From Chlorokybus atmophyticus (lineage: Eukaryota > Plantae > Mesostigma and Chlorokybus algae): a DNA stretch of 64,000 nucleotides. Shown here one piece after another: positions 3,220-60,559 of the stretch. A program made the position numbers and the translations under genes. A model generated the notes under the pieces. The model searched no databases, was not told the origin of the DNA, and was given only the letters and a program-made list of their open reading frames with translations. Where the stretch lies: NCBI GenBank assembly GCA_009103225.1, contig RHPI01001737.1, forward strand, positions 438,223 through 502,222. Reading direction: 5' to 3'. The stretch's first letter is position 1, and each line of letters opens with the position of its first letter.

Positions 3220-3234
3220 CTCCCACGCGAGCAA

Positions 3235-5700: not shown

Positions 5701-5868
5701 TTAAATGTCTTCCAGCAAGATCCTGTAAGCCTTAGATTCCGGCTCGTAGCCAACGAAGATGCTCTTCTTGCTGACCGGTTTCAACTTGTGCCTAAGCTGT
5801 TTAGGCACTAGTGCATATGCCGTGCATCCAAACACACGCATACCACTCACATCTGGTGTGGCTCCATA

Positions 5869-16441: not shown

Positions 16442-18529
16442 TCAGGACCATGATAGAGGCGAGCCTACTTGAACATAGCCTAGTGCAACCAACATCTGCC
16501 TGCCTACATACTCGGAGTATGCGGGGGGGATGCATTCGACTAGTGTAGACTCATCGGAGATCCAATCAATGCCGAGAGCATGCCTCCACCCTGTCATGGT
16601 TCCTGTGGAGGCAGCCTTCCCGTACACTGGATACATCTGCTGTACACCGCATGGGTTCTGCTGGAGGGTGTCGGCTGTGCGGTGTCCAGACAGTGCGCCT
16701 CATCGCTTGTCGGTGTGGGTGCATACCAAGTCCACACTGACGACAGGCACTGTCTCGAACACACAATGCCTAAAAGTGGGCAGGCCGAACATTGTCCCAC
16801 ACAACACCATGTTTGGCTTCATGAACTGTGATGCGTCGGGGATGTTCTCGATAACAAACGGTTTGCCGCTACGGTGCAGACGATCATGCAGTGCGTGCAG
16901 GAGTGTGCTGTGCTGCCATGTGCTGCCATGTTGCCTACGCTGTGACTCTGGTATGCAACGAGCAAACGCCTGGCAAGGTGGACTTGCCCAAAGAATATCG
17001 TACGGCTGGAGGTCTACCGTCAGTGCATCCTCGTTGATAAAGGTGAAAGGGTAGCCTGGCTGCTCATGTATATCAACTCCCGTGACGTCAAACCCAGCAC
17101 GGTATAGGCCCATGCTGGCGCCCCCTCCACCGCAGCACATATCCAGCAGCTTGGGTCTGTGCGGTGCCCCTGTACGCTGCTGTGCTGTGTGTGTCACCAG
17201 TAAAGGAGCGGACCGTCTCCATAAAGGCAGAATAGGCAATGGAGGAGTGGCCTTGCGGTTAGTAGGTGCTCTACTGCCACCGATGCAGAAGCAGCCTTCG
17301 CTGCCATAGTTGTCCAGCACAGCCACTATGTTGTGATTGTCTACGAGCACATGTTGCACATCACCATCAGAAAAGTGAACGCTGTGCCGTCCTGCATGCG
17401 GACACACTGTGTCAGCACATGCACACAGCCTGTACACACAGTCAGTGGGTACAACATCTGTTCACCTATGCGACTGTTGTGGGCGTAGATGCTGCCAGCA
17501 TACATAGCGGCGTCCGCTGGCCAGTAAACCATCACTGTTAGTCCCACGAGTGCAGGCCCTCCATCCAGGCAGCGTTGGCGCAAGTTTTCCACTGTTATTT
17601 CAAGCGCGTGCGCAGACTTCTGCGCGCAAAGCTGCTGTTGAAGAGGGAAGCGTACAACCAATGCCCGCTGTGCGTTTGTGTGTGGCAACTGTGTTGGTTT
17701 GTCCACGAGTCTCGCATGGCGGACGCGCATGGTGCGACATGCAGTTCTTATGCGTGTGCACGACACACATGATATCGCTAAGTCGCAGTCATAACGCCCA
17801 ACGCACAGCTGCAAGAACACAAGAATGTAGAGCACACGTGTGTGACCATGCGCGTGCCTGCGGCATGTGCGCAGGCTTGCCTGGAACAAACTCACATGCA
17901 CGCGCGCAGCAGTGCACAGACTGCTAGAAACGATGCGTGAACGCTGGCATGTGCACTTACTGCTGCTCCCTCGTGTGACCCGAATTGGAAGCTCTGAACA
18001 ATCGCATGTTGGACTTGATCACCGCGCCCGCAGCGACGACGCTGGGACTGCATGAGTTCAGTAGTGAGCTTGCCAATCGCAGTGTAGTGCAATGCGATTG
18101 TGGATAGGCAAAGCCACGTGAATGACATTTACTAACAGGCAATAGCGTGAACCGCTGGCCGTCCACCAACGTGCCGGGTTGGACATATGGCATGTAGCGC
18201 ATGGGCTTCCCGTGCCATTCAAACAATGCAGTAGCACATCTATTGCAACAGCATTGCTTGTTGAAAAATTCTGGAGAAGTGCAATGTAGCTTGCCTCTGC
18301 AAACCATCAGGTGTACTCCAGCACAATGATGGTGCCAACACGCAGCAGTATACCCAAACCGCGCCGCGTACTCCCTGCAGCTTGCTTCGTGCTGGACCAG
18401 TCGAGCACGTTGCCCGTTGCTGACAATGTAACCACGACATACTGTGCACACCTGTGCTGTTTTGCCCTTGACGGGCGCCACATCCGCCATGCACACACTT
18501 GCATGCTCCAAATGACAGCGCATTTCCAT
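16442..18529 (-). pseudogene. Cys/His-rich Zn domain - Tudor - C5-cytosine methyltransferase gene, copy 1 (one in-frame TGA)
   Basis: LLDMCCGGGGASMGLYRAGFDVTGVDI (I), ASPPCQ (IV), FVIENI (VI), LCGTMFGLPTFRHCVFET (VIII), CIPPAYSEYVG (X). Tudor VGLTVMVYWPADAAMYAGSI..G|RHSVHFSDGD with intron 17392-17465. In-frame TGA at 16700-16702. Confidence 0.85.
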
Positions 18530-18708: not shown

Positions 18709-21700
18709 CTAGATGTCGTCCATGTCCATTAGCGTTAAGTCCTCAACGTCGCTGTCAGAATCCTCAGTGTCTTCCCAATTCCAGTCATCGGGTAGGTCCG
18801 CAACATGTAGCCCATCAGGAGGAGCAGCAGGTGCACCCTCACGCGCCGACTCGTGCACATTGCTGACACCTGTGGTGTCGTTGGTCATAGCGTGGAGGTT
18901 TTCGCATCCAATACATAAGCAGCTATAGCTGCATGCCTGGCCTGCTCTCCTGCACTTGCATCGCTTGCTGTCGCAGCGTCCCACCTTGCACCCGCATCCA
19001 TGCATGAGTAGCTGGCGCCTTGATACTGCGGCTGCCATGTTTGCAGGAAGGTCTTTCACAGCATACCACACTCCTTCAACATGCTGGAAACCGTACTCCG
19101 CCAAATCAGGCAGTTGCATCGCATGCTGGCAGCTGTAGCCACATGTTAACCGTGTAGACAGCGAGCAGTGCGTGTAGCCACAAAGCGTCGACAGTTGGGA
19201 TTGTATCTCGAGGTGTAGCATTTTTTTTTCCAAAACTGTCTTGTGAATGGCTTCAAGCCAGTCGCTCAAGAGCACCTTGTTGTTGGTAGTTGCAGTCGCT
19301 CCGTGCAGTGCGTAAAACAACGAAGCAGGGGTGCCGCTGTCAAAGGAAGACCTGTATTTCTCGAAATAGGCACACCCAATCAGTCGCAGCACCGCGAAGC
19401 ACATCTCGTGCTCCGGGGCACTCACATTGCCGGTGATTAAGTCTGCATGCTGAGCTAGCACAGTCTTCCAGATGAACTGCTTGGATATGCCTCCAATGAA
19501 TGACGTGTAGTCACAACCTGTAGCCGCATAAATCACCAACAGCAGCCAGCCACGATGCATTGCATCCATGCTGTGTAGCTGGTGCATGCTCCTCACATGC
19601 TGCAGCAGGAGTGTCAGGTTGATGAAAGGCGGGCGGGACCCAGCACGAGAGTGCTATGCGACCTGAACCGTAACGTCCCTCAGCGCCATATCCCAGCTCT
19701 CGATCACCGCGAGGCTGATAACTGTTACATCAGTGTCGGGTGAGACTATCATGATGTTGTTATAGGGCGCTTTGTGTGCATGCACCCAAACACGAGAATC
19801 TGCTTCTCCGTGGTTGCACGTGTCGTCGTTGGTGTGCGTCCTTGTGTACTCTCCAGCCGACCCGCGCGACACCACGCTGGCAAGGTCACCCAACTCAGCG
19901 TCGTTGGATCCGCCGGCCATTACTAATTCTTGGTCGTGTCGCAGGTGTGGTTCTATCATGCTTGGCAGGTGTTGAGTTAGCAGCTCGCACAACGACCTCT
20001 TCAAGCTGCGATCTCGGAGGACATCCCGCCAACAATTAGGCAGATGGCTGTCAAGGGTCAGTTGACGTCTAGTCGAGGTGTCTGCTCCGTCACGCGTGCG
20101 TTGCAGCGAAGACTTCACCCCCATTTGACACCTTGGTGTATCAAACATTTTGCACACTGCGCACAGTTGGGTTCACCAGCCTGCTCAGCACAGCGGTGCG
20201 CATTAGGTGCGTGATGTAGTCCTTAATTGTGCCCTGCCCCAAGTGGCACTCTTGGTTAATCAAGAACATTTCCTCTAAGATAATGCACTCCACCCCTGCA
20301 GGCGCGCTTTGCGACCAGCATGGAGCATCATGTGGGCCACTTTCGATAGAAACTTCGCCTTATCTTCAGAACGCATCTTGCCGGTGAGCTCGTCAAACAA
20401 CGCCCAAGGGTGTTCACAATACCTTGCTGTGACTGTGTCCTTGTCAGCACTAGTCGAAGCAAGCCGCTTAGTCACAAGCATCTCTTGCCCATATTGCTTG
20501 AGGACGGTAGCCTGTTTGGTAGTTCTTTTCTTGGCCGGAGCCATGGTGGCCAAGTTGTATCTTCTAGTCACCTTGCATGCCTGCGCCTCTCTGCATATCT
20601 CAACTTGCACATGACTGCTCATCGCTTCCACGCCAACTGTGTATTGCCGTGCCAGGTCAGTGGAGGCAGCTGGTGTTGCTGGCACAACTGATGTTAGATG
20701 CGTCAACTGGCTCAGCGGTGGACGAGACAATGCTTGGCTGCTTCTCAGCAGCTGCTGCAGATGCTGAAGGTCATTTCCACAATGTGACGCATCAGCCGTG
20801 AGAGTACGCACCACCCTGTTGCAATTGTCGTCTGCATCAGCATCCATATCGTGCAATGGCAAGTCTTGTTCCAAAAGCAGCTGGCGACTTAGTTGGTTTT
20901 GTAACTGGCTCCGCTCCCCAAGGTACAGCCTTGGCTGTTTTGTGGTTGGCTGAAACAGGGACATCTTCATGTCCCTGTTCACTTGGCACCCATGTGCCTC
21001 GTCCAATGCCACCAACCGACCTGGTGTCCCTGTCAGGCTCACCGTAAAACCGCCCGCAGCGAGCATGTCAACCAGGGATGACGGCATGAGCTGGAGGTCA
21101 GCCAAGTGCAGAGTCATGACCTTCTGATAGTTGAATCTGTCCCATGCAAACGAAAGTGGGCTCAGACCCTTCCAACTCGCTAGCCTCAGGTGCCAAATTT
21201 GTTGCCGAACAGAGCAGAATAAAGCCAGGTAATGCAGCATATCTCTGTTCACGAAATGCCACCAGAACTGCCAAGTCGCATCTTGCTGTGCCTTATCTTC
21301 GCACCATATCTCGAACAACCTCCGTGGTCGACTGGCCGTGACACCTTGCTGCGCCCAGCCTTGTTCGCACTGCTGTTTCGTGCTTGCTTGCAACTGCTCC
21401 CACCACAGGTCGTGGATGTGCCGGTATAATGCCTCCCAAACCTTGCATAAAAAGTTGTGGATCCGTTTTCAATGACTGCCATCTGCCAGATGGTTTCTAG
21501 CAGTTGATGCGGAGAACCCACACTCCAAGGACATTGTGTCTAGGCCAGCGTCCCATGCCATCTTCATCAGCACGGGCTGCATATTCATTAGCACGTGAAA
21601 GTCGCCAGGAACAGGCACTACCCAATCCCGATATCCCGGCTCGGCTTTCTTCGAGGCATGCATGAGTGCAAACGTTTTCTGGTCTCCAGTAATGCACATC

Positions 21701-23527
21701 TTGCTTTGCTCTTCGTTCAAAACAACCTTGCTCCGCAAGTGGAGCGCGATCGTGAGATTATTAATCGTGTCAGGGTAGAACGGGAGCATTGGAAGGTACT
21801 TAATGTCGTTGGCTACCATGGGTGGCTCTGCACTGGAGATGTTAAGATTCTGCGCCCAACTGTCCTTGAGGGTTGGTAACGCATTCTGCTCTTCCACGCG
21901 CATCCGGAACAGCACTGTGTTATGCATCGTCACCTTGAACTGATCCATGGCAGCCAACTCTGCCGGCTGGAGATGCAGCATTCGGTCACTGCGTACCGCC
22001 GCGTGTTGCCTGTGTCTGGGTTGAGTCGGAGGCCGCGTCTCAGGACATGGAGGCGCCAGCATGGCCTCTTGCAACGTGTGGTTGCGCGTACGCTGTGCAA
22101 CAGAACACATACAATGTCACCCACTAACAGTTTGCACTGCTACTCGGCGGGGTAACTTGACATCATGCATGCATGACTCAACTGCGCACTGTGGTGTATA
22201 CACACCTGCAGGTCGACCGGCATACTCCTCGGACGCCCGAGCGTGGATGTGAGCTTCGTGGACGTGGCATGTATGTCGCCTGTAGTTCTGCCTTTATACT
22301 TGGCTTGGTAACCAGCCCTCACATCCAAGTTGTCTATTGAAGCCAGGACATGCATCCCGGGCCGTGGTTGTAGTCTTGCAATTGAATGCAAGTTGTGCAC
22401 AGCACGCTGATGGATGTGGCTGTTCATGTGACACCTGCTGGCGGTTACCCCCAGACGATTCAACGTCTATATTACTTGTTACCCGTTGTCGCTTGGTCAA
22501 CTGCGTCGGTCACCACCAGGTGCAACGGGGACATGGCCCACTTGCTTCTTGCGTACACCGCAGAATGGAACAGAAAACATGTTTTGTTTTGCAGGATGGC
22601 TAGATTCCTTGCATACCGTGGCCCAGGGGACTTGACTCTCTCCATGGCAATATACCCTGTCAAAGCTCCGAACACCTTGCGCAACGTCTCCCCAGAGGTC
22701 TCCCACTCAGCTTGCCAGTCAACGAAGCGCAAGTCGTGATCAACCTGGTTGCGCTCCACCAAGCGTTGTCTCTCCTTCTCCATCAGCATGTTCAAGTTAC
22801 GCAGCACCACTTCAGGCACTTCTGGTTCTCTCAACGATGTACCTCTGCCTCTGGAGTAAGTTGCGGTCGGCACATCGGTCACCCGCATCGCATGGCGCAG
22901 CAGACACGCTAATGGGTCTGCCCAGGCAGCGATCACCAGAGTGCCCTGTTGCCGTGCACCAGTCACTGAAATGATGGCGCCCTGTAGTCTAGCCTGCACT
23001 GCTCTCAGCAGCACCCGAGCCTGTTTGATGCGGTGCTTCGCTGCCACAGCCGTGACGAGAACAACCGCGTCCTTGTGCAGCAGCTGTGCTGCCACATCCT
23101 TCACCGCACAAGTCAACGCATCGACTCCTGCCTCTTCTGCGACAGCCCGGACGTCGTCTTCATACAGCAGTCTAACCTCTTCCGCCACCATAGCGTCATG
23201 CTGTGCATTTGAAGAAGGTCTTTGTGTGCTGATGGTGTCCCGGAGCCCAGCTATCACATCCTCCAGCTCCACTTGGCGGCAGCGGTAACCATCACGGTCT
23301 TGCTCTGCTACCTCACGCTGCAATTTCTCCATACAAGACTGAGTCGCCTCCTCCTGCACCCTTGTCTCCAACACCTGAAACCCACACAAAACCTCGTATC
23401 CTCTATTTGCGAGTCCCAATGGCACACAGCAACACAGCACACAGTACCTGCACATGCTGTGCGAGGTCGTCCAGCTCTTCTTGCAACTCCCCTCTCGCGC
23501 GCTCAGCCTCCTGTCGCTGCGTGACAT
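18709..23527 (-). mobile_element. AcademX-like transposase gene (Academ DDE domain + XPG/PIN nuclease + Cys8 zinc finger), multi-exon, probably degraded
   Basis: NRLGVTAS, SIDNLDV..TTGDIHAT, ITGDQKTF, PVPGDFHVLMN, VALDEAH..VNRDMK, HPWALFD..GKMRSEDKAKF, MFDTP..VKS, HGEADSRVWVHA, VSPDTDV, TGCDYTSFIGGISK, and C-terminal GCGCKVGRCDSKRCKCRRAGQACSYSCLCIGCEN. This domain order matches Academ proteins as I recall them. Termini not found. Confidence 0.78.
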
Positions 23528-23744
23528 TGGTCGTCTGCTGCTGGCGCAGCACTTGGCTCACTTCCTGTTAGGAGCATCAGCACTGGATTCAGCCTTAACC
23601 CAGCACGCAATTCAGGTACATATAGTTCACGCCTGACAACAATAATATGTGCCACACATAGTACTGCACAACTTGCAGTGCCACAGCCATATGCCATATG
23701 CTCACCTCCCACTGTGTGTGCAAGTGTTGCGCTTCCTTTTTCGC

Positions 23745-27284: not shown

Positions 27285-27429
27285 CCGTCAACAACAGCCT
27301 TCCACAATAGCCGACGGCAGACCCAACAGTCCAAAAGTGACATGCTATGCACGGTCAAACACCCGTCAGTCCCTCAGTCCCTGGTCAGTCACTCAGTCCC
27401 TGGTCAGTCACCGTGTAAAATTTGCGACG
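27285..27429 (+). repeat. ~140-bp segment inverted-repeated at 33768-33915; probable transposon terminus
   Basis: GCCGACGGCAGACCCAACAGTCCAAAAGT...GTCAGTCACCGTGTAAAATTTGCGACG matches the reverse complement of CGTCGCAAATTTTACACGGTGACTGAC...ACTTTTGGACTGTTGGGTTTGCCGTTGGC. Confidence 0.75.
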
Positions 27430-27492
27430 TTTACGTCGGCGTGTCTTGCTCACGCTGTCTGTCACGGTGACCAGTATCCTTGTTGCTGAGAA

Positions 27493-31800: not shown

Positions 31801-32639
31801 CTTAATTCACTGTTGCACGGAGTCTGCACGTTTGTGGACTTTTGGCTGTCACCTCACATAGACAAGCACTCGTGCGCGGGTACTGCTCTTCTAACATGTG
31901 CAGGCCCTTGTGGGTGAGAAGGAAGAAAGGGGGGTTTGTTAAGCAGCAGGTACAAAGTGGTTGTGATGTGCTTGCGATTGTCAATGGTTCGGCTGTCCAC
32001 TAGCCTCACTGTCGACTAGCCTCACGCGCGCGCACGCGCATGTGCAGGACCTTGTACTAGCTAAGGTGTGGCGCCTCTTATGGGTGATAATGAGGAGCGG
32101 TTACCAGGGTCTTACAGGTAAAACTTTCTGTGGTTACGTCTTGCATATTTGTCACATGCTAACTGTCGCCTGTTGCACGGCACAAGCGCATGTGTGACTT
32201 GTTCTTTGATGTAGGTTTGTAGAAGGCTCTTGCTGTATAGGCTTAAGGGTAGTTTGCACCACATGTAGCTGCAACCATTAAGTGAATTCTTGGTTGTGTA
32301 CTTTTATCTATTGTCCTGTGTGCTATGCATTGTGTGACCGCATGCTGGCAGGCATTGTCGACAGCGCCAGCTGTGGTGGAAGCCGTGGCTATGGCCTGTC
32401 AACCGCAAAGCCCGTGGCCTGGCCGTGCTGGCGTGGTCTCCACCAGGCCAGCACGACCAGGTCAGCGGCCTGACCTGGTGCTTTCGGTGTTAAGCACCAG
32501 GCCGCCCGCCAAGCCATGAGCAGCGGCTGCCTAATGAAGGTTGCAGTTAAATTGCTGCAACTGACTGTCATTAGCCGCCAGAGCACAGTTAGTTTATTGC
32601 ACTTTTAACCGGCCATTAGTCGGTCTTTAAATCTATGCT

Positions 32640-32943
32640 GGTCCGAGTGCGACCCGCCAACGCACCATGAATTATTGTAATTCATACACCATGATGGTCC
32701 CCGAACGCTTGAACAGCGCGCACCAAGCATGGTCCACGCTGTCGCACATAAACTCTAAAAATTTCACGCACCAGCCATGGTGCGTCCCAATGGACACGGG
32801 GGACCTATGACGTGAAATTCGGACCATGTATGGTCCGACTGTCGATGAAGCACCGACCATGCATGGTCCACCAATTTACTTGGGAGGAAAATCCCGGTCC
32901 TGCGTCACCGACCATTCATGGTCCTTTGACGTCAGGCGGTGTG
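32640..32943 (+). mobile_element. Right terminus of a CACAC-family DNA transposon
   Basis: ...GACCATTCATGGTCCTTTGACGTCAGGCGGTGTG, closely matching the 7707 end (also GGAAAATCCCGG and the ACCAT/ATGGT array). Confidence 0.8.
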
Positions 32944-34331
32944 ACGAAGATGCTGGCTCATTATAAGAGGGAGAAGGAGACGAGAAGACAAGAGCAGGCT
33001 CAAGCAAAGGCTGACGCACAAGCTGTTGCAAAGACACAGAGAGGAGCAACAACATGCAGCATAAGCAGAGGAGGCGCAGTGAGCACAGTCTGCAAAGGAG
33101 GCCCAGGTTTTGCTGATGCGCTACATATGGGACCCTATGGAGTGCCACAACTAGCTGGGAGACCCCTTGTGGAACTATGCAGAGGCCTTTACAAAGCGAC
33201 ACTTCAGACTTGACCCCGCACACAACCAGCAGGTGAAAGAGGCAGGCGCCCGCTGGCGAGAGAAGCGGAAGACCAAGCACACACCAACCACCACACCGCC
33301 TTAGACTTAGGTAGACTTAGCAGTAAAACTCATGCATGCTGTACATAATCAAGCCAACAACCTCTATAACCTTATGTTGTCGCTGGCCTTGTGCATGTCA
33401 TCTATGCATGTCACATGACGGTCAGGGCGCCGCCGCCACACCCCACGGCATCACACAATGACCAACAACTTTACCGTCAAAGCTTCGAGCTTGGCTGCAT
33501 CATGAATCGCCAACGCATCACAGCTATCGCTGCCTGCCACAGCGCCTGCCACAACAGCCCACATCCACTCTATAATGGCTGCAAGGCCTCCGGAAAAAGG
33601 CTCAGCAAAGGCTGCAACTTGCAGCCTCACTGAGGCCTTTCACTCGCGTCTCAAGTCCTCAAGTTAGGGCTTGGGGACTTTTAAGCTATCTGCCCTCACA
33701 CCCCAACTTTGGCGCGCTATATCCGACACGCTATAGCGCAAAAAAATACAACAAAAATAATGCTATGTCGTCGCAAATTTTACACGGTGACTGACTAAGG
33801 ACTGAGGGACTGACTGGTGCCTGAGCCTGCCTAAGCCTGCCTGTTGCTGCCTGAAATATTACTTTTGGACTGTTGGGTTTGCCGTTGGCTTAAGTGGACT
33901 GACGCAGACGGCCGCGGGCCGAAAGTGGTTGTCAGTGGCACTAACCGGCCGAGAGTTGTCAACCAGTTACCCTTTGGTCGATGTGCACAGACGGCCGTTA
34001 ACCGGTAGTTACGGACAGCTGACAGCCATAGCCGGCAGTTTCGTTGCCGTTACACTGCTGTTAATATGTGACCCTTGCCATTTGACAAAAGTTGGCAATT
34101 CTTGCCGTAAGCCAACACTAACATGCCATGCAGCTTGTACAAACCTTGGACTGATTGTTTGGTCTTGCACCTAAAAGCCCACAATATATACAATGTACGG
34201 GCAGTGGTGAGAGTATGTCCACTCACAACTGAGCAGCCGACTTGCGCATGAAACTATCCTATAACATTGAGTCTAGCTGTCGGACTCATGCGCAGCTTGT
34301 CAACCCGTGGTGCCTGCCTAAGAACTCCTCC

Positions 34332-35205: not shown

Positions 35206-35368
35206 TGCCCACTACGCCCCTGGCAGCGCCGCCAACGATCTTCCAAACGCCACATACCCTCGGCATCACGCCCCTGTAAGGGCATAGCTTGGCGGAGCTA
35301 TCAATGGTGTTTTCATGCGCAGGGGGACTGACATTGCCAGAGTTGTCAATGGTACGAACTGCCATTGC

Positions 35369-35539
35369 CATTGTACAAAGGTACCATTTCAATGGTACCT
35401 TTGTACAATGCCTAGACCTTTTGGCAAAGGCATCTTCGTACCATTGAAACGGTTCAATCAGAATATATATGTATATAAAAATATCCAGAGACTCACCCTG
35501 GACGTGCAATGGCTCGTTCGTACCATTATAATGGTACGA
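35369..35539. promoter_or_regulatory. Cluster of GTACCAT-based palindromes in a divergent intergenic region
   Basis: 20-bp-arm hairpin at 35369-35410; perfect 22-bp palindrome TCGTACCATTATAATGGTACGA at 35518-35539. Confidence 0.5.
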
Positions 35540-35690
35540 CGGAGCCAGTGACTGGCGGCCAAGTTTCCCGCCTCTGGCATGCAAGGGTAGCGGTAGCGGT
35601 GGCGGTGGCGGCGGCGGCGGCGGGTGTGCGTGTTGCTGGATATGATGCAGGTTACATTGGCGACACCTGTGTCGACGTTAGTAGTGAGAT

Positions 35691-38600
35691 ATGGGAGTCC
35701 TTTGTCCGTATTGCCACATGCGCTTCGCCACACGCAGCTCGGTCTACATGCACATTATTAGCAGCAGGGTGTGCAAGCAGATCAAGCTGTATGTCGGCCA
35801 GCGTCCATTACAGTACGATGCGGGTCATGTTGAACCGGGGAGTTCGATCCAGGATGCTCACATGCTTGATGCTGAAGGATTCCTTCAGGAGACACACGCA
35901 CAGCAGCAACAGGAGGAGGAGGAAGTGAACGAGGGCTTTCGATGTGTGCGTGTGCCTGAGAAACCTGTGGCACGCCAACATGGAAGTGGAGGCGTCCCTT
36001 CGCACGCGTCGGAATCCAGGTGGTATGGCTCGGAGCATGCTCTTGCAGTGGCATTCGTGCAGTGCAACAACGGCCAAGGCCTGTCGGCCTCCGACATGGG
36101 GCGGATCATCAAGTGCATCCGAAATGCACACTTCCTGACGGAAGAGCTCCAGTGGGAGACCGGTGTGCATGCGGCCAGCTACCTCCGGACCACGATTGCT
36201 TTCTCTCAGTCTGAGGTGTGTTCACGGTGTGCGGTGCATGTGCTTCAACCATCAGAGCCATGTCACATATGCACATGCGAGTGTGCTGCCGTATCAGAAC
36301 TACGTGACGGCTGACCTGCGCAAGCCTGGAGACCCTGAGGATCAGGACATCTGCGTCACATATATGCCGGCCAAGGTCTGTGAAATGCAGTACCTAATGC
36401 AGTATCGATGCAGTATCTATTCTGAGGCCAGCATAGTAAGTAATGCTCTTGGTCGGAGCAGGTATGGCTCGCGCGGTTGTATGGCAATCCACATGCCGCC
36501 AATGGCTTCAATCTCCAGTACACTGGTGACGAGCACAGCTTTGGCCATCCTTCCACGGGCGATTGGTGGAAGGATGTGGAGGTGGATTTGAGGAGAGAGG
36601 TGGGGGAAGCGTCCTACTTGGCGCCTGCCATTCTGTACAGTGACAAGACCACGCTGGACAGCGCGGGCAAGCGCTCTGGCTACCCTCTGATGGCATCGCT
36701 TGCCAACTACAGTTGGGACATGTATGCTAGCAACATGGGGGTTGTTATGATAGCGCTTCTGCCGGTGGTTCACGCAGTGGCCGGGCATCCCACCTGGGCG
36801 CAGGGCAAGGAATCGTTCTCCATTCGGAAACGTGAGATTTTTCATGACGCTTTGAATGTAGTGTTAGGGGATGTGAAGCGGGCGAGTTGGGAAGGTCTGC
36901 AGCTCATCGACCCGAATGGCATCGAGCGTCGTGTGTTTCCCGCGCTTGCCAACTACATCAGCGATTTGCAGGTAGTGGGCATGAATGGTTGTAACCGGAT
37001 GCAGCCCGCCAGCAAACAGTGCATGGAGGATGTTGTCAGTAGAACATCTGAGTTTGTCGTGTTGTAGGAGACTGCCACACTCGCACGCACTGTGTCGGGC
37101 AACCAAACACGACATCCTTGCGATGTTTGTCTCGTCACCAAATCAGATCTGTTGGAGATGGATGAGGACCGGGAATTGAGAACCGAGGCCTTCTACACAC
37201 CAGCAATACGTCAGCTGCGGGCGGACCTGCATAGCGGTGTTAGGAATGCACGCCAGACAGCCAAGGCTTTCAAAGAGCAGCACTCCATGCATGTCGAGGA
37301 GGTAATGGTCAAATTACCGGCATTCGTGAGGATGAATGGCTTTCCGTGAAACCAGGCAATGTGGTTTGGCAACAGAATGCACTGTGGGGTTGGCGACAGT
37401 CGCGGGTGCCGGGAGCTGACTGCTACTCTCGTCTTGCCCCTGACGCAATGCATGTGCTGGGAGGCATCATTGACCACCTGCTTGCTGCTGTGTACGACGC
37501 CGCGAAGGAACGAATGCGTCCATCCACGAGACAGATTCTGCAGGCCAGGCACGTCTTTGGTGTTGCTTTTGTGTTGAACACAAAAGCCAACAACACGTGC
37601 TCACGAGCAGATGTGCACAGGCTGAATGCATGCAAGGCGACTCTGCGGGTTTCGCACTTCAAGGCACCCACAAGCACAGTAGATTTCTTCCTGTCCGACC
37701 ACTCCTTTCAGGTGGTGGAGAAAGTGGCGGTGCTGCAGCTGCTGCCGGTCCTCGCAGACGGTTTGCTGCTCGACAGTGAGGGCAACGATTTCTTCACCAT
37801 TGCTGCCGCATCGCTTGCCCAGTGGAACAAGAAGTTGCTGAAGGCGCATGAACACACAAGAGAGACCCTGACCACAGCCGACAACGAGCTGGCTGCCTTC
37901 AAAGCTGCAGTGTTGCATCCGCTACTGTCGTCATATTCTGCACAGAAGTCAGGTTGGAAGATCGAGAAGATGCATCAGCTCACTCATTTTGGGCCGGCAA
38001 TTGTCAGCAGTGGACACCCAGATTGGTTCAGCGCCAACCGCATGGAGCAGACGCACGCCCAAAATATCAAACGGTGGGCGCGTGGTGGCAACAACCGGGA
38101 CTACCAGGCACGTATCCTGAAGGCATGGAGCTGTGCGGAATATGTGAGAGAGGATGGCATGGTCGTGGATCCCGAGATGCGCTCGGTCATGGCGCAGGCG
38201 CGGCAGCAGTGCTGTAATGTCATGGAGAAGACGGACAAGTTGCTACGGATGGATGTGCTGACAAGGAGGGAGTCCAGCCCGTACTGGAGCGGATCTGCGC
38301 GTAGCCGCCAAGTCGCCTTGAAGACTCCATTTGCCGACAAGCTGCCTGCCACCCTTGACAGCTGGTTGAGGAGGGAACAACTGGAGTTGGCCGACGGGTG
38401 GCGTGCTGTTCGCGTGGTGAACGGAGGCGCAGCGGTGTACATGACATCAGGAGTCAGCATGGCGCGCGCAACTGGGATGTTCCATGGGCGGCCTTGGTTC
38501 TCTACACTTGAGTTGGAAGGTGATGAGGACGGTGTGAACGTGACGTGGTGGGCTCAGGCACTCCTTTTTCTGCGCGTGGTGGTGTGGGGTGGTAGCGGCG

Positions 38601-38833
38601 AGCGCGTGTGGAAGGAGGTCGTGTTTGTCCGCTGGTACACGAAGCTGGATGTGACGAGCGACACAAAGTGCATCGCTCTGGAATGGGAAAAGCGTCGAGG
38701 CGGTCCACATCTCGATGTCGTGACTCTGGAGCAAGTAAAAGGCATTGTCCAGCTGCTCCCCATGTTTGACAAGGACAGCGCCCGTGTACAAGAGGGCAAG
38801 TATTGGGTGAACGTTCACTGCACTTCCACGTGA
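35691..38833 (+). CDS. Plavaka-family transposase (multi-exon) with N-terminal C2HC/C2H2 finger
   Basis: CPYCHMRFATRSSVYMH; GDWWKD; ILYSDKT...GKRSGYPLMASLAN; IALLP; IFHDALNVVL; ERRVFPALANYISDLQ|E; PCDVCLV; APDAMHVLGG; KMHQLTHF..AI..SGHPD.FSANRMEQTHAQNIK..AR; C-terminal FLRV..EVVFVRWY. Whether the exon 2/3 junction is intact is uncertain. Confidence 0.88.
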
Positions 38834-39036: not shown

Positions 39037-40765
39037 TCAAGCCTCATAGTTCCATGACACAGGAGGGTAGTCACAGCGCATATCCATTGTTTCAAGCATG
39101 AGACGCCCTATGCACTCCGCCATTGCGGGAGGAACTGCATTCGCTATGGAAACGGCCGAGGTCATCCATGGCACTCCCAGCGCTGTTTGCCACGCAGCAA
39201 TGCCGCCCCTGGTGCTTGGAAGGCCATAGACCGGGTACATCTGCTGTGGCGCGTTTGATGTCACGATTGTCTTCTTCGCGCTAGCGGACAGGTGCGGCGA
39301 TAGCAGTCCAACTGCCTTGCCCGCGTGCGAGCAGCGTGCTGGTGGGGTAGCTACCACTGGCTGTGTCTCAAACAGACGGTGTCGGAAAGTTGATAGGCCA
39401 AACATCGTGCCACAAAGGGACAGATTGGGTCTGAATGAGGAAGCTGCTCCTGGCACATTCTCAATCACAAACTTGACCTGGCTTGCAAGCAGCAGACGTC
39501 GGACGAGCGGTATCATATCCTGGTGTCTCCAGGATGTGCCATGTGCCGCCCGTTGAGGTGCCGGGATAGCACCTGAATAGGCCTGGCATGGTGGACTGGC
39601 CCAGATGAGCTCGTACTCGCTCAGCTCTCCTGCACTCAGGGTGCATACATCGCGGTGTATGAAGGGCAGCGGGTACTCAGAGGAGGGACTTATGTCCATC
39701 CCGGTCACGTCAAAGCCTGCGTGGTATAGACCGACACTGGCACCGCCACCGCCGCAGAATAGGTCGAGTGCCCTTGGTCTGCGTGTGCGTCCCAGCTTGT
39801 TGTCAAATGGCGTGTATGTGGTCAAGGCTGGCCGTGGTGCTGGCCAGGGACTAACAATGATGCCGTCCGGGCTTACTTTGCGACTGACGTTCTCCCCTCC
39901 GGCGCGCAGAACATGGCGTGCCCCGTCAACTGATGTGTACGCGAATACGTTGTGCCCTTTGAAGTTGATGGTTTGTGGTCGATCACCGTCATCGAATACT
40001 ATACGGTGCTGCCCTGCAAAGACATTTTCCATTGCACCATGCATATATGATGCGTCCTCAATCTCGCACGCCACGAAGCGATGCTGACCTGACGCTTGCT
40101 TGAATGATTCCACAACGCCCGCATACCATTCCCCATCCAGCGGCCAATGCACCATGACACTCACACCGATCAGCTGCTCGCATCCCAACTTAACTGCGTT
40201 CCGCAGCCGATGCAGTGCGCTGTCCAACGGTCGATGGTCTGCCTCCTCTACAGCGGCCAGGGGATGGAACTGCCCACGCCCACACCGTGCAAGACTGCTC
40301 TGAATGCGACAACAGCTTCAACATGCATGAAATAAGCATACGCCCAACATAACATGCAGTGATACGTCGCGGTCCACTCTTGTGGATTACCTCCACAGCA
40401 TCCACCACCTGTCCACTAACCACATGTCCCGGTGTTGTCCATGTGAAGAAGCGCATGGGTTCCCCTCGCCACTCGAAGCATGAGCGCGAGCACGATTCGC
40501 ACACGCACTGCACGCAATGGAAAAACTCGGGTTCCTTGCACAGCACTTGGCCGAGGCGGCAGCCAAACACGTCGACATTGTGTGTGGTGTGATGCCAGCA
40601 AGCAGCACTAAAACCGTGGCACACTGTCTGCACTCGCTGGCATTCGGTCAAGTGTGCTCGCATTTGCTGCCTACGGCCATTGGCACATACGTACGCATTG
40701 CATTGTGGGCACACCAAGCATGGTCTCCTAGGTGAGGGTGATTCAACTGCTGCCGCCGACATCAT
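39037..40765 (-). CDS. Cys/His-rich Zn domain - Tudor - C5-cytosine DNA methyltransferase, copy 2 (intact, 3 exons, 520 aa)
   Basis: Exons 40765-40391, 40299-40089 and 40013-39037 (1563 nt) join in frame. Tudor IGVSVMVHWPLDGEWYAGVVESFKQASGQHRIVFDDGD; MTase ALDLFCGGGG (I), ASPPCQ (IV), FVIENV (VI), FRHRLFET (VIII), NAVPPAMAECIG (X). Confidence 0.92.
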
Positions 40766-40903: not shown

Positions 40904-40921
40904 AGTACCATGCATGGTACT
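40904..40921. promoter_or_regulatory. Perfect 18-bp palindrome AGTACCATGCATGGTACT upstream of the Tudor-MTase gene
   Basis: Directly visible, ~140 bp upstream of the ATG at 40765, among several ATGGTAC half-sites. Confidence 0.45.
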
Positions 40922-41248
40922 ACATCAACATGAATGGTACTCTATCTGTTAATGGTACTACAGTACAAGGATACTCGCATACTACCACGATCGTAGAGTA
41001 ATACTGTGCTGTCATGCCATGGAACCCAGAGCGCTGTCCGAGTTTGTTGCTGTCAACCACGCTCTAAACCAGCGAGGTATGCAAGCCATGCACTGACTCA
41101 TGCGCCGGGCAGTCATCATACACATGTACAGCCAATGCTTCTAACAACAGCAGATCTCTGGTGCACCATGCACCATGCTGCAACTATACATGTACCTACA
41201 TGGTTCACAGGAAGCCAACACAAAACTACAATACATGCACAATTGGCA

Positions 41249-44200
41249 TCAAGGCGGGGGCCAAATCACCGCCGACACGTTGGCGTCTTGCATCAGGCGT
41301 GGCGACCAAAACGGGTGAGGTTGCTTGCAGAATGGACACGCTTGTAGATTCTTTGATTTATTTGCCACAGTCTTCTGATGTGCTATGATGCAGACATGGC
41401 ACATCGCTTTCTTGCAACAGGGCGTCTCCCCATCCGCTGGGGGGGGGGGGTCTTCCATGCGACAAATCAGCACACATGGTGCACGCGGGTGTGCAAGCTG
41501 CCTCTGCCACCAAACTCTGTTATCGCGTCGCAGGCGTAGCGACTCCCATCTGAATGGCGCAGCATAACGCTCCACTGCCTGCTCGATCACCTGACGCCCA
41601 TCTGCCGCCATACACCACCTGCTGGTCTTGGTGGTCTCGTCCAGCATGCGTTCATCCAGGCCCTCGACATGGCTGTCGTCACTCGTGTACTCCCCCGCAT
41701 CGTCATTTTCTTCGAGCTTCCACAGAATCAGCTCGACGTGCCGTATGACATACAGCCACTGCCAGCCAAAGCATGCCAAGTACAGCTCGAATGGTTTTAC
41801 TTGCCACCCAGTATGTTTGCTCAGGTAGTGGCACACATCTCGACCCGCATTAGTCGACATCGACAGGTACATCTGCTGCAGCAGGTCGAAGTTCTGCTCC
41901 GCAGATAGCTCTTGCACATTGCCGGGGTGCTGCGGCAGCAACAACACCATCATATCGAGGACGGCGAGGGGCAACAACGTACTACGGATGGCCATATCGT
42001 GTATGGGTTCCAACCACGGCCAATCCCCAGAGGTCTGTTTAGACCGCATTCTCCGCGTTTGCTCCCACTTATTGCAAACTTTCGTCACCCACCTCGAGGC
42101 ATGCCGCATGCGGTGATGCAGCGCGTCTTGGGCGTACTGTAGGGTGATCAACTCCTTTGCACTACGAGTCAGCCCCCCAAAGCGTCTGCGCGTCGGTGCT
42201 TTGAGCTTAGGCAGCTCGTGCCGCACCGGCTGTCTCTCTGGACGATGCTGAGCAGCCACTTGACGCTGTAAACCCGCCTGTGCCTACTCAGGACACACAG
42301 TCAGCCCCAGTGAGGCTTCAAGGCGCTGTGCTTCTTCTAATGTTGTAACGATGCCTCACCTTTCCTTTTTTGGTCCTGTCAGCGTCCTTTGTTCCAACAA
42401 CCTTCTTCTTTTTTTTTTGGTCACCCTGCACATCCTGGCAGGCGCTCTCCGTGGCACTGTCACTCAGAGGAGGTAAGGCGTTATCTTCTTGCTCCACAGC
42501 CTTGCGCTTGTTGGTTGCCTCCCGTTCCTCCACGACCTCATGTTGCTTCATGAGGTCGAGCATGAAGCCTTTGTCTTTCAGCGCAGCTTTCAGGACACCT
42601 CGATCAATCTCTTTACCAACAAGACAGGCTGGGATCAATGTGGCAAGCTTAGAGGGAGAGGGCGAGCTACAGCTGCTTCTTGATGGAGATGCCTCCGGAT
42701 GGTCAGAGTGCGGTGGCAAGTGAGTCTCCGCGGCAGGAAGGGAGGGTGCTGAATTGGGATTGCGAGCATGTGGCTGTGGTTGAGGGGAGGCAGGATGTGC
42801 AGAACACTCGGCTACTTCTTGCCTAGCACACGAAGGCGAGGCCTGAGGCGTTGGCGCAGCACTCTGGGTCACAGCCGGTGGTAGCGGGGAATTGGCAACG
42901 CCATTCCGCCACTCTCCGATCAGGTGTGTTACCTCCGGTGGCACTTCATGCATAGGCCACGACCACTGTTCGGTGCTTGCAGGCTTGAGGAGCCAAAAGT
43001 GTGCTTCTGGCTCATCAGGAGCAGTGTTGCCCACCACCAGGACTGAGTTGGGGGCTTCTTTATTTTCAACCCAAACTGCGCTGCCGGTCCGTGGCACCCA
43101 CTCCCCATGCTCGCGCTGAACGGTCACGCAGCCAATCAACAAGCCCAGCTTGTTGGCAAACATGGTCATCTGCAGGTGCTCGACGTACACATCTTTTCTC
43201 CGCACGATCTGTCGCACCTTGGCCATGGCTAGGTCAATGTTGCAGTTGATATCAGCCAACATGGTCGCAGGCAGTTTGTCGTAATACTGCGCCATCTCTC
43301 CCGCGGCACCAGTGGCTCTGCAGAAGTCTAGGATTCTGCTCGCCACGCCTGCATCGACAGCCTTGGCGGTGATTTTGCGGAGAGTGTGCCCCCTGCCGTC
43401 GTCGTCCATGGTGTCAAGCATGGCCCAAAATCTGCTCGAGCTGGGGCACTTGTGATCATCCAGGACACTTTGCGCTATGGATGGCTTGGCGCGAAATACA
43501 CAATGGTAGAAGCAGTTACCATCCGTTAGCGCATTGAAGTGGTCCCATGAGGCGAGCTGGCCACCTAGCATGACTGATGGCCGTATGCGGGTTGCGGCCA
43601 GCTCCTCTGATGACTCGCTGGCAGGTGGTGACCCCTGCTGCATGCGCATACAGCACTCACATGGTGTGTCCAACTGTGGACGGCAAGAGTCACAGTGACT
43701 GATAAAGTACCTGAGTTTGGGGCAGACTGCCGGCTTCAACTTGCAGCGGGTGGGGTAAGGTAGGTGCAGAAGCCACATCGGTTGTTGCATTGTGCTGTGG
43801 TCTCGCCGGTGGCGGCAAGAAGGATTGTTGCCCCGCAATCACCGGTGCTGCTCGTGGAGGAGATGGCAGTGCACGAAGGACTGGTGCCGCGGAAGGTGGT
43901 TGCGCTCTGGCTGGGAGGGGAGCAGGAGCTGCAGGTGAGACCACTTGTGCATGCAGCAAGGGGGGCTGTATACAGGACCCAGGATAAGATGGCTCACAAT
44001 GTTGCAAAGGACGAATATAAGCTTATGCAGTGCCTGACGCATTGTTACCAAGGCACGAGCATAAAAGACAGCGACTTACCTCAATGGCCCGTGGGCTGCA
44101 TGGAGCAGGGGAAGCCATGGGGGCTGACAAGGTGGTATTGGCTGCACTCTCCCCGCCACCCTCGATGGCAGACTCGTCACGGAGCTCTTGAGCCATGGGC

Positions 44201-45200
44201 ACATCATGCGCCACTGCCTCAATGGACATGTCGGGATTCAACAGGCCAACATGCATGTTAAACTGATGCCGCATTGCCGCCGCGCCCATCAGCAAGTGGG
44301 ATTGAAGGACCAGTTGATGGGATTGAATCCAGGCTTGCATAGGAGCTCCAACAGGACTTAGTGCACTGTGGTGCTGTCAACCAATCACATGTGGGTTAGC
44401 TGCATGCTTGCGACACTGCAATTGCAATAGTCAACTGCGTCACACCGTCATCAGTTGGTTGCTTCGAACAGTCACCTGCGGCATTGCTGGTTGATGCACG
44501 AATGATTGCATGGACTGCGTCATTGCTGGTTGATGCACTATTGGTTGAATGCCGGACGAATGGCCACGCGCTCCTGTGCTCAAACCCAGCCTACTTCGTT
44601 CGGCACGCGCGCGCGACTTCGCACGCTCACGCACATCCTAGCATGCAAAGGTAGGCATGCATTGGAGCCGACATTGCAGTCAACATGCACAGCGAGATTG
44701 GCAACAACATACCGCCGCCCAGCTCTGTCTATCTGCTCTTGCTTCCGCAATGTCGGCTTGACTGTAGGGTGGGTATGGGTGAATAGTGGAGGCCTGCAGC
44801 CACGCTACATATATCACATGGACTGCGCTAAAAAACAAATTGCTCTTGCAAGGAAATGCATGTGACTGTTGAGCGTACCTCTGCATTCCTTTGTGCTTGT
44901 TCCCACAGCCGCAACTGGTCCCGCATGGTTCTGACAAGGGGCTCCAAGGACTGCAGCTCCTGATCCACTCCCTGTTGCAGAAAGCGAGCCACCAAGCAGC
45001 TCTCTGTGTGAAGATGGTCTTTAATGGCTTGCCTGCTGGTTTGTCCAATGTTGGTGATGCATGTTGGACAGCCCCATTGCTGACGCCTGCCATGATCCAT
45101 GACGTGGCGACCGGTAGTAGCTGGCTTCGCTGCTTGAACTCTTACGACCACAACTTCTCGCAAGATGTGCCACGCCGCCGCCGCCGCCGCCGCCGCCTCC
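41249..45200 (-). CDS. Spliced gene encoding (C2HC finger) - low-complexity - OTU cysteine protease - RING-type finger
   Basis: OTU TDGNCFYHCVFR...EAHFWLL in ORF 42318-43838. RING-like CVLIC...PCCKKAMCHVC...CPFC in ORF 41249-42259. A 94-nt intron 42266-42359 (GTGAG donor, CTGAC branch-like site, TTTACAG acceptor) joins them in frame (KKGK|RQVAAQ). The upstream exon has CPTC..KDHLHTESC; the 5' exon structure is approximate. Confidence 0.72.
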
Positions 45201-45361
45201 TCCGACTCCTGGTCCTCCGCCTCCTAGTCGAACCCAGGCCCATCAAGCCTGACATTCGACCCGTCATCGACCTGGTGCCCCTGCGTGCCATCATCCGGCC
45301 ATCAATGAAGCGTGTTTGGGTGAGTGCATGCTAACTCCCATTTGGGCTGATCGAGCAATGC

Positions 45362-45520
45362 CTCTGTCGTACCATGGATGGTACGACAGAGCCATTGTAC
45401 GGCAATCGCTGGGGTTGGACGAGAGATGCCTCTGTCGTACCATAAATGTTACGACACAACCATTGGTAACAATGGTTGTACGAAGCATGCATGGCACGAA
45501 TGCATAAGTCGTACCATCAA
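45362..45520. promoter_or_regulatory. GTACCAT palindrome cluster in a second divergent intergenic region
   Basis: 14-bp-arm CTCTGTCGTACCAT-GG-ATGGTACGACAGAG at 45362-45391 and a degenerate second copy near 45430-45460. Confidence 0.5.
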
Positions 45521-45699
45521 CCATAGGAGCAAGGACGCACTACAAGTGCGACTCTAGTGCGGGACTCTAGACGTTCAAAACCGCCTCATTTTCGTTTTCG
45601 CGCCTCATACATTCGGGCGGGCCAACCGGCGGCGGCAGCGTTGGAGGCGGCAGCGCCACTTACAGCTAAACAGGCGGCACCCGACTATCAGTTGGAGAG

Positions 45700-47290
45700 A
45701 TGCCTCGTGGTCCATCCGTAAGTGCACCTCGTCGTGGAGGTCGGCGCCAGTTGTCCACATTGCCCCCAGTGTTCAACCAGGCAACCGTCGCCAACCAATC
45801 GCAGCAAGACCCCGCGCTAACGCCCAGCACATCACAACAACTCCACCTGACACCGCAGTCGCAAGGGCAAGCTAGACTGCATGCGTTCTTGATGCACTGT
45901 GCACGTTGCTTCTTGCTCAACTTCTAACTTGGATGCTTGCTTCTATCATGACTAGCACAGTGACTCACTGCATGCGTTCTGGATACACTGTGCACGTTGT
46001 TCTTCTTTTGCAACTGTGAGGGTTGCATCTTTCATGGCTGGCAGCATGACTCATGTGGTTGTGCTTGCAGAGGGTCGATTGGAACCCCCAACCCAAACGC
46101 ATTTGGCCGTGACGTGGCAACCTCGGCCGTCAGCAACCCTTCCCCAAGCAAGTGGAAGATTGGCAACGAGGTAAGCACTGTGTGACACTGTGACACTGTG
46201 TGTATGTGTGTAACGGATTGTTCTTCTGTGGACAGCATTTGCGAGATGCCGTCGTTGAAATCATAAACGGCCACTGGGTAGAGAGCCACGTTTATCCCAA
46301 GGAGGACACTATTCGTAACGTCATGTGTCAGGTGCTGTGAATGCTTCATGACCGCACTGCACCGTGACACTGACCAACCTGCCCGTGACAGGTAGTTGGC
46401 TTCGACCATGACGACGAGGCCGATGCGGCCAAGTTCTATGAGGTGTACTGGACTCCCAAGGAGTGCCCCTTCCACTGGAGTGTCGCCCTGAAGAAAGCTA
46501 CGCAGGTCCGGTCTGAGAACGTCACCAAGATCAAGCATGTCCTTGAGAAGGAGTACAAGTGGACACTGTTTAACAGCAACAAGCGCAAGTGAGTTGGGTC
46601 CCTCACCACCATGTCTGCTATGCAACACTGCCTTCTTACTCAGCCTCCATACACACGTACTCATCTCGCCTATTGTAACCGATTCAATCAGGCACATCGA
46701 CGCCCTAATGGACCCCGAGACCCAAAAAGCCCAGATGCGCAACGCGCTCCAAAGTAAGTCACAGGCACTATTCTAGCCTGGTGCAGGCTCAACTTGAACT
46801 ATCTATTTCGTGACTAATGCCTTGTCGGTATGACTGTCGCAGACAAGTCATGGCGGAGATTTGAGGTGACCGACACTGCAGACCCGGAGCGGAGGAGATA
46901 CATCCATGAATGGGGCAATCCCATAATCTGGCAAATGATCGTGCAATGCTGGTCTTACGCCGTCACTACACCTGGTCGCCGGCAGCTGACAGTCAACCAC
47001 TTCTTTGTGTGCTATCCATGAATTAGATTTTACTCCACCCTCATCCTCAATGTTGGACTCCTCATCACTCAACAACTCCACCTGCGAAGAAGAGTCTTCG
47101 ACAAGGCCCTCTTCGGATTGATCATTCTTGTGGACACTCCACTCTTCGAGGGCACCTTCGATGGGCATGAGTGCCAGTCCTCTAAATCCGGTGGGCATGA
47201 ACTCGCATGCAACTCGCTTCTGCCTCAAGCAAACTCAGCTGATGGGTTGGATGCAAGTGAAAGATGCGTGTTTCCTTGCAAAAAGGTAGT
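45700..47290 (+). pseudogene. Spliced hypothetical gene (unknown family) with an in-frame TGA at 47019-47021
   Basis: Clean GT-AG bounded exons: GSIGTPNP...KWKIGNE | HLRDAVVEIINGHWVESHVYPKEDTIRNVMCQ | VVGFDHDDEADAAKFYEVYW...LFNSNKR | HIDALMDPETQKAQMRNALQ | KSWRRFEV...CYP*IRFYSTLILN. Confidence 0.6.
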
Positions 47291-49003: not shown

Positions 49004-60219
<11,216 letters not shown>

Positions 60220-60559
60220 ATTGCCAATTCCCAGCATTTCAAGGATAGTGTAGGATTGTAAAGTCTCCCATGTGCTCTTTACCAATCATAAACCTGTAAA
60301 CCCGCCTTCTGTGCGTGTACCATGGGTAGGCAGCTCCATATTCTAGCAAATCGTTGCATGTACACTCTGTTGACCATGCTGCAATGATACATGCGCATGC
60401 AAGCTTCAGCACTTATTGGAACGCTTAAATTTGACACCGCTAGGCTATGTGGTACTTCTAACTCTACCACTCTAACATGCATACCCCACCACAGCAACAG
60501 GCATTGTCGTGATACCTGCCACTGCCGATCGTGTCAGCCTTGCGCAGGTCAACGTTGAC

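Follow-up and report, generated by a model that had tools for sequence, protein, structure and literature searches.

A predicted Tudor–C5 cytosine methyltransferase fusion gene beside a Plavaka-type transposase in the alga Chlorokybus atmophyticus

Methylation of cytosine to 5-methylcytosine (5mC) normally silences transposons, and why some transposons carry a methyltransferase of their own is an open question. We analyzed a stretch of 64,000 nucleotides from the alga Chlorokybus atmophyticus (contig RHPI01001737.1, positions 438,223 to 502,222; hereafter the window), in which a gene on the minus strand is predicted to encode a 520-residue protein in which a Cys/His-rich domain is followed by a Tudor domain and then by a complete C5 cytosine methyltransferase, next to the transposase gene of a large Plavaka-type transposon. 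With this gene the question becomes testable on one 520-residue protein, of which the reader, the writer and a candidate DNA motif can each be assayed. Methylases fused to chromatin readers are known elsewhere, among them the chromomethylases and bdelloid N4CMT.

Several described systems come close to this arrangement, and they are compared here on the basis of portions of the cited papers. PAG2 of the red alga Bostrychia belongs to a giant Plavaka element with several accessory genes and, like the gene in the window, fuses a chromatin domain with a DNA methylase; it combines an N6/N4 amino-methylase (PF01555) with a SET writer, whereas here a C5 enzyme is combined with a Tudor reader and a putative zinc module, and the accessory genes of red-algal Plavaka elements are reported to move between transposon families (bioRxiv 10.1101/2025.02.11.637652). 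Transposon-borne C5 enzymes with proposed self-methylation have been described from algae as KnitGypsy-Dnmt3, SymbioDIRS-Dnmt3 and SymbioLINE-Dnmt, but unlike the window gene these are parts of retrotransposon polyproteins, mostly of Dnmt3 type, intronless and, as far as described there, without a reader (PMC5890265). Mariner-1_OLpv of a giant virus places a C5 methylase in a cut-and-paste transposon, as here, but that enzyme is viral, 344 amino acids (aa) long, paired with a restriction nuclease and described with neither introns nor a reader (PMC3627910). Other DNA-modifying accessory enzymes of DNA transposons include the ParB-methylase of Ectocarpus Sola1-1, which is an amino-methylase, unlike the C5 enzyme here (PMC12477816), and the TET/JBP enzymes of fungal Plavaka elements, which are dioxygenases (PMC12730594). 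The Tudor domain of Ectocarpus Gypsy-10, called there the first on a transposon, lies on a retrotransposon polyprotein (PMC12477816). ChloroDNMT and other reader-fused methylases also couple a histone reader to a DNA methyltransferase, partly of prokaryotic origin, but these are host genes with PWWP, chromo or BAH readers rather than a Tudor domain on a transposon, and orphan eukaryotic DNMTs mostly lack companion domains (PMC12344493). Finally, Arabidopsis RDM15 also links histone H3 lysine 4 monomethylation (H3K4me1) to DNA methylation, acting through Pol V and without a methyltransferase, whereas here reader and writer lie in one transposon-borne chain (PMC8184781).

A first-pass annotation, made by a model from the sequence, had described the fusion as carried beside a DNA transposase, and as lacking a counterpart known to it in a cut-and-paste transposon. 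The neighbor is an open Plavaka transposase gene, which bears out the former statement. The latter held in part: our literature search (supplements lay outside it) found no Tudor–C5 fusion on a DNA transposon, but the red-algal Plavaka methylase–SET fusion was already known. The surprising points at this locus are that reader and writer are fused, that the fusion lies next to transposases of two types, and that some of its kin bear a methyl-CpG-binding domain (MBD); an algal transposon with a methylase is no longer new.

Gene model and domains of the fusion protein

The minus-strand exons 40765-40391, 40299-40089 and 40013-39037 join to 1563 nt, which make 520 codons and one stop. Exon 1 (40391..40765) provides 125 codons with the Cys/His-rich domain, exon 2 (40089..40299) a helical linker and the first half of the Tudor domain, including the Trp and Tyr of its aromatic cage, and exon 3 (39037..40013) the rest of the Tudor domain with the cage Phe and two Asp, a linker and the C5 methyltransferase domain, so that the product reads Cys/His domain, Tudor domain, complete C5 methyltransferase. 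The three exons and 520-aa open reading frame of the first-pass annotation, together with its assignment of a plant-type Tudor domain of the PDS5/MSH6 type and of a C5 methyltransferase with motifs I, IV, VI, VIII and X, were all supported, as the joined exons are open and both introns run from GT to AG, and as the domain evidence below agrees. Intron 2 (40014..40088; 75 nt, phase 1) splits the Tudor domain and is itself in frame and free of stops. It is supported by comparison with a paralogue elsewhere in the window, which has a GT..AG intron at the identical codon and phase with a length of 74 nt that shifts the frame unless removed, so that splicing is required there. Between the two intron bodies the alignment score does not exceed chance (10.8% of 500 shuffles reach it), while the exons are 41% identical. 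Intron 1 (40300..40390; 91 nt, GT..AG, phase 0, exact ends predicted) is less secure, since 46 GT..AG pairs leave the frame open and the paralogue leaves its position unfixed; the pair chosen by the first-pass annotation has the best-looking donor and a length that resembles the introns of the transposase (74–96 nt). In a run that is possibly RNA (X4), the single contig on the gene takes in only 16 letters of intron 2, a reach too short to be counted. Judged from these features, the sequence almost certainly represents a real spliced gene.

The paralogue (16442..18490, minus strand) was found by tblastn of the window against itself, 21 kb from the main gene, and has the same order of Cys/His, Tudor and C5 domains, with an in-frame stop at about 16700. 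Over 360 aligned codons the two are 41% identical, with 0.43 nonsynonymous (pN) and 0.75 synonymous (pS, saturated) differences per site, which indicates purifying selection between them.

The best sequence match of the Tudor domain in the Protein Data Bank (PDB) was 7DE9, the Tudor domain of Arabidopsis RDM15/PDS5C (E value 2.8e-05, in two pieces flanking intron 2), which the paralogue matched at E 0.0089; Pfam, run on the unspliced pieces, called no Tudor family (0). The cage of RDM15 for monomethyl-lysine consists of Trp616, Tyr623, Tyr641, Asp643 and Asp645, and with this best solved match, of the RDM15/PDS5C and MSH6 Tudor type, the window protein has five cage positions in common (PMC8184781). 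Once intron 2 is removed, both copies present W, Y, F, D and D at offsets 0, 7, 25, 27 and 29, gapless against the RDM15 cage, with Phe in place of Tyr641 in each. Tudor domains of the RDM15/PDS5C type have been reported from land plants and from green and some other algae (bioRxiv 10.1101/2024.10.15.618488). From the spacing it is probable that the domain recognizes a histone tail carrying a methyl mark. The cage suggests lysine in a low methylation state, though not surely H3K4me1, which as the actual target is a tentative proposal.

The C5 methyltransferase domain (about 39790-39040, minus strand) has a very short target-recognition region and its motifs in order, with motif I starting at 39768, IV (SPPC) at 39600, VI (ENV) at 39465, VIII (RHR) at 39387 and X at 39144. 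The last 250 residues of the protein matched Pfam DNA_methylase (PF00145) above the curated cut-off (E 7e-06), and an AlphaFold model from a 31-sequence alignment was confident (predicted local distance difference test, pLDDT, 89.9; predicted template modeling score, pTM, 0.89), so that profile search and structure prediction agree. The model superimposed on M.HhaI (1FJX; Z 17.5, root-mean-square deviation 3.7, 221 residues), with DNMT1, DIM-2 and HaeIII tied, at 12–21% identity among the fold matches. Across the 31 aligned family members the catalytic Cys, ENV and the first Arg of motif VIII are invariant. On these grounds of sequence and model, the domain is quite likely an active DNA C5 methyltransferase. 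Membership in the canonical DNMT1, CMT, DNMT3 and DNMT5 families, which were left out of the trees below, was rejected on domain content and low identity: Pfam called no BAH, RFTS, chromo, PWWP-ADD or SNF2 domain in the product, nor the PWWP domain that accompanies ChloroDNMT, and none of the 11 sequence matches in the PDB (E up to 10) was a DNMT1 or DNMT3.

Exon 1 opens with the pattern C-x2-C-x15-H-x3-C, followed by a cluster of WHH, C..C and CxCx2C, and likely encodes two zinc-binding modules. The pattern is kept in the paralogue at 37–39% identity, and no homologue was found among 1.84 billion representatives, with all Atlas matches below 0.9; the domain is thus conserved only between the two window copies. 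Its model reached a pLDDT of 48 and was confident only for residues of about 9–45, a hairpin and a helix, which is suggestive of a zinc finger in the first half. Foldseek returned no match at E 0.001 for this model, and the 95 weak matches included several zinc fingers.

The transposon around the gene

The transposase gene (35691..38833, plus strand) has five exons and 934 codons with one stop, is open, and belongs to the Plavaka (CMCT/EnSpm-related) DDE enzymes, with a Pfam match to PF18759 (E 4.5e-23) and candidate D, D and E motifs. Plavaka enzymes form part of the CMCT group, with motifs C(2)C and H(3-4)H lying after the second D and ahead of the last E (PMC12730594); the C(2)C lies here at residue 389 and only one His of the H(3-4)H motif was placed by eye near 475. 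A homologue search with the last exon found none. Transposase and methyltransferase genes lie tail-to-tail, 203 bp apart, and are bridged by a contig (37874-40394) of run X1. Contigs of both X1 and X3 cover the region from about 33.8 to 47.0 kb. Run X3, from a second study, gave 879 contigs on this region, with 367, 268, 135 and 109 in four falling bands of identity, as variant copies would give.

The likely left end of the element (33769..33898, plus strand) has an inverted copy at 27301-27429, and the two are exact for 27 nt from the inner end at 27429 and decay outward. Contig cover of two runs starts in the bin that contains this end: X1 and X3 cover little or nothing to the left of ~33.8 kb, and X1 nothing to the right of ~47 kb, although absent cover proves nothing alone. 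Known Plavaka ends are terminal inverted repeats of TGT..ACA or CATCA..TGATG with target duplications of 2–3 bp, and the shared end begins CGTCG, preceded by TGT in this copy only; it was not found in the metagenomes of the Joint Genome Institute (JGI). At the other side, contigs of X1 and X3 leave the window at 47000 and continue into one common other sequence that the window does not contain. At its right side (46980..47000) the copy is truncated or interrupted, with its true right end outside the window, and the unit spans more than 13 kb, from about 33.8 to 47.0 kb. We consider it very probable that the methyltransferase gene is cargo of this transposon.

Between the methyltransferase and the cut lie further putative cargo genes: two frames of 506 and 344 aa (41252..43838, minus strand), with an OTU-peptidase-like motif seen by eye only and a RING-like finger at the end of the 344-aa frame (Pfam E 0.42, below the cut-off), and small genes at 44831..46800 on both strands. 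The 506-aa frame had no PDB match.

All 14 copies of a GTACCAT motif in the element fall in three patches 5' of its genes (1.1 expected; shuffle maximum 5, n=200), although the motif was chosen after hairpins had been seen. Four of the 14 (GTACCAT/ATGGTAC, 40905..40958) form an inverted repeat 140–190 bp upstream of the methyltransferase start, six lie upstream of the transposase (35349..35537, with hairpins at 35369-35410 and 35507-35550), and the other four form an inverted repeat between two divergent putative cargo genes (45369..45517).

The paralogue has a neighborhood of its own. Directly upstream lies a decayed transposon-like gene set (18712..23557, minus strand) with a DUF6589 transposase-like gene, an XPG/PIN-like nuclease (by eye) and a TCR/CXC domain, in which the DUF6589 (E 1.9e-05) and TCR (E 4.4e-04) matches are below curated cut-offs and the frames are interrupted by stops; the DUF6589 type differs from the Plavaka neighbor of the main gene. 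The second terminus (27301..27429, minus strand) is of the same type as the left end, faces away, and may be where the paralogue's own element ends. A single element with terminal repeats from 27301 to 33898 was rejected because identity is highest at the inner ends. The segment 26880-27429 combines the terminus shared with the Plavaka element and hairpins in which the promoter motif occurs in variant form, although the nearest transposase-like gene on that side is of the DUF6589 type; either the same ends may serve two unrelated transposases, or the segment may be a separate non-autonomous piece.

Relatives of the catalytic domain

The homologue search yielded 2529 proteins among 7997 candidates, and most of the 120 listed are prokaryote-type enzymes of 230–260 residues. 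Phage records matched in 319 cases, mostly actinophage, and the 30 listed are 36–40% identical; members of the same short family also occur in prophages and across many bacterial genomes, in some cases joined to a DNA polymerase or a primase. Mycobacterium phage Pukovnik gp82 and Gordonia phage Yakult gp45 belong to this family (36–40% identical over 90% of the catalytic domain), but these phage orphan enzymes are of about 220–240 aa, stand alone or are fused to polymerase, and are not the sister group of the window pair. The view of the first-pass annotation that the enzyme is of bacterial or actinophage type was therefore right as to its membership in a short phage and prophage family, but the actinophage enzymes are not its nearest relatives.

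Two trees bear on this point. A quick tree of 141 rows omitted 15 of 151 proteins (five tandem dimers, five cluster duplicates and five weak hits), and a careful tree of 48 rows (LG+G4) included 25 random rows of the 118 ungrouped ones and three actinophage rows. Both window enzymes fell into a clade of 20 rows, with an SH-like approximate likelihood ratio test (SH-aLRT) support of 99 in the former and 99/95 in the latter. A clade of the window pair with the three actinophage enzymes was rejected in the 48-row set by the approximately unbiased (AU) test (p 0.00067), which was run after the first tree had been seen. A short signature was found in 23 of 151 proteins, all of them in the 20-row clade or among its cluster mates. 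The best viral fold match was a Pithovirus enzyme (LCPAC201; E 7e-19, 32% identity), well ahead of the rest, and on this basis the route of transfer may have run via giant viruses or other eukaryotic mobile elements.

Besides the window pair, the 20-row clade holds five proteins, of which four have a Pfam MBD, and 13 with a longer insert. The sister of the window pair differs between trees, being the MBD group in the 141-row tree (SH-aLRT 92), whereas the 48-row tree singles out none (60/29). In the four Logan proteins P0005, P0006, P0008 and P0010 the MBD lies inside the variable region of the enzyme (E 1e-09 to 2e-06), which makes each of them a possible read-and-write 5mC enzyme, on which our literature search found no paper. 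The 13 others (P0011, P0013, P0015-17, P0019, P0026, P0029, P0030, P0032, P0051, P0064 and P0126) have 340–490 residues with an insert of 100–115 residues, look intronless, lie on metagenomic contigs of up to 245 kb and are possibly from giant viruses. Their insert is weakly MBD-like, with an HHalign match at a probability of 5% and E 0.008, as against E 0.26 for a reversed control.

No Tudor-fused form was seen among 26 longer homologues, a weak negative drawn from precomputed Pfam calls and the reading of six sequences. Profile scans of IMG/VR (45 of 64 parts), metagenomes (8 of 64 parts) and GTDB returned the short family, and none of the 80 GTDB matches kept exceeded 840 bases, as against about 970 for the insert clade. 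IMG/VR scans with three single proteins, aimed at the hosts of the nearest clade, found none. Among four long-span IMG/VR matches the sole one read (L006) consists of two short enzymes in tandem, and a further candidate (L004) was set aside as a different methyltransferase. The family has other fused forms as well: P0001-P0004 and P0009 contain two tandem copies of the short methyltransferase domain, and in a Bryobacterales metagenome-assembled genome the short enzyme is fused to an HNH-like nuclease (L214, 1129-3299, with about 14 sister loci, L216-L236), in many identical copies that sit behind an IS1595-like transposase identified by eye.

Proposed function and other features of the window

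We slightly favor, as a whole, the reading in which a large Plavaka-type transposon carries the gene as an accessory and the product is a chromatin-guided enzyme that writes 5mC on copies of its own element. The MBD-bearing relatives, which have this other chromatin-type module instead of a Tudor domain, fit such guidance. The Tudor domain would dock on a histone tail that bears a low methyl-lysine mark, with H3K4me1 as the first candidate, and the catalytic domain would transfer a methyl group from S-adenosylmethionine (SAM) via the cysteine of its PC motif, as in M.HhaI. As the target-recognition region is tiny, specificity is proposed to come largely from the Tudor domain and the zinc module. 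The most speculative steps are that the target would be the element itself, e.g. at or near the palindromic motif 5' of its genes, and that the outcome would be a tuning of its own expression or a disguise from host silencing. Self-modification has been proposed for accessory methylases of algal transposons in the portions available of two reports (PMC12477816; bioRxiv 10.1101/2025.02.11.637652), yet taken by itself a self-directed target is somewhat doubtful here.

A number of observations weigh against this reading. In the gene model, the joining of exon 1 to the remaining exons is something we infer from the sequence, and contigs of the four runs contain a spliced joint at neither intron. 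The RDM15 residues that hold H3R2, Glu647 and Gln654, are not clearly kept (offset 31, the position of Glu647, is Pro in the main copy and Gln in the paralogue) and the alignment beyond the cage is loose, so the mark read may differ from H3K4me1. One end of the element is defined, and hence neither a terminal repeat pair nor a target duplication is demonstrated; contig depth gives no copy number, and X1 is possibly the window's own source. The paralogue is a pseudogene in this copy, broken by its stop, and 4-mer counts within the element give no hint of a methylated motif through depletion (z -2.5 for the lowest 4-mer that contains C).

The enzyme could instead be an active reader-guided methyltransferase that works in trans on marked host chromatin, such as gene bodies or rival repeats, and reshapes the host methylome. 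The type of Tudor domain fits this, as it reads H3K4me1, a gene-body mark in land plants, but the same source, in the part available, reports Chlamydomonas to be without gene-body H3K4me1 (bioRxiv 10.1101/2024.10.15.618488). Nothing shown links the enzyme to the DNA of the element and its zinc module is without a known partner; on the other hand, retention of the gene in two distinct transposon lineages should mean that the element profits from it, and the clusters of the promoter motif offer a candidate target in cis. We regard such action on the host as rather unlikely. It is less likely still that the protein binds DNA without methylating cytosine, as a catalytically weak decoy or an anti-silencing binder, or acts on another substrate (RNA, or a non-standard alkyl donor). 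Three features would suit that explanation, namely a Met in the main copy at a near-invariant family Tyr in the motif X region, the very short target-recognition region, and the lack of any measured activity for a member of the short family in the literature we searched, the first and last of which also count against the self-methylation reading. C5 folds moreover include tRNA methylases and a carboxymethyltransferase (8YF3 is among the fold matches). The substrates of orphan DNMTs are hard to predict, according to Sarre et al. (PMC12344493, in part). Against it, the main copy retains all catalytic motifs, and the phage relatives adjoin or are fused to DNA polymerase or primase genes, which points to DNA.

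That the gene is a passenger, either a host or viral gene captured Pack-style that does nothing for the element, or a host gene that was domesticated and merely lies among transposons, is the least probable of these explanations and quite improbable. The window is a transposon graveyard, with several nested elements, a dead paralogue and a missing right end, as a passenger would allow. Against it stand the two copies, diverged to 41% identity and under purifying selection, each directly downstream of a different transposase-like gene, and the promoter motif common to gene and transposase; contigs of the second study, too, span the gene along with the remainder of the unit.

If the enzyme is active, the reading of methylated H3K4 would be tied directly to the methylation of DNA, a link for which plants rely solely on RDM15 and Pol V. 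The gene shows a path by which prokaryotic enzymes may turn chromatin-aware aboard transposons, ahead of domestication by the host. A broader generalization, which we hold to be unlikely, is that a eukaryote and giant-virus branch of the phage methyltransferase family has become a modular epigenetic tool of DNA transposons that swaps targeting modules (an MBD within the enzyme in some relatives, an H3K4me1-type Tudor with a new zinc domain in the window copies), crosses transposon superfamilies and enables the element to deposit 5mC at its own palindromic promoter motifs where nucleosomes carry the mark. In that case no smaller histone-reader DNA methyltransferase in a single chain would be known, and H3K4me1 would be linked directly to 5mC.

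Other features of the window are minor. A Gypsy-type remnant (1-2929, minus strand), interrupted by a copia element at about 3000-9300, contains at 2330-2929 a frame for a third C5 methyltransferase (E 3.8e-09) upstream of its reverse transcriptase; the frame resembles Dnmt3 by eye, and the arrangement is like that described for KnitGypsy-Dnmt3 of Klebsormidium (PMC5890265). This Dnmt3-like frame, the short GT..AG introns, a GC content of 50–57% and the plant-type Tudor domain suggest a green-algal host. A dispersed repeat rich in GACCATGCATGGTC hairpins (5859-6063, 7528-7708, 9283-9469 and 32767-32944) is probably a small non-autonomous element. A host gene with many introns, of the XMAP215/MOR1 family by its TOG domain (E 2.3e-17), lies at about 50000-60400 (plus strand).

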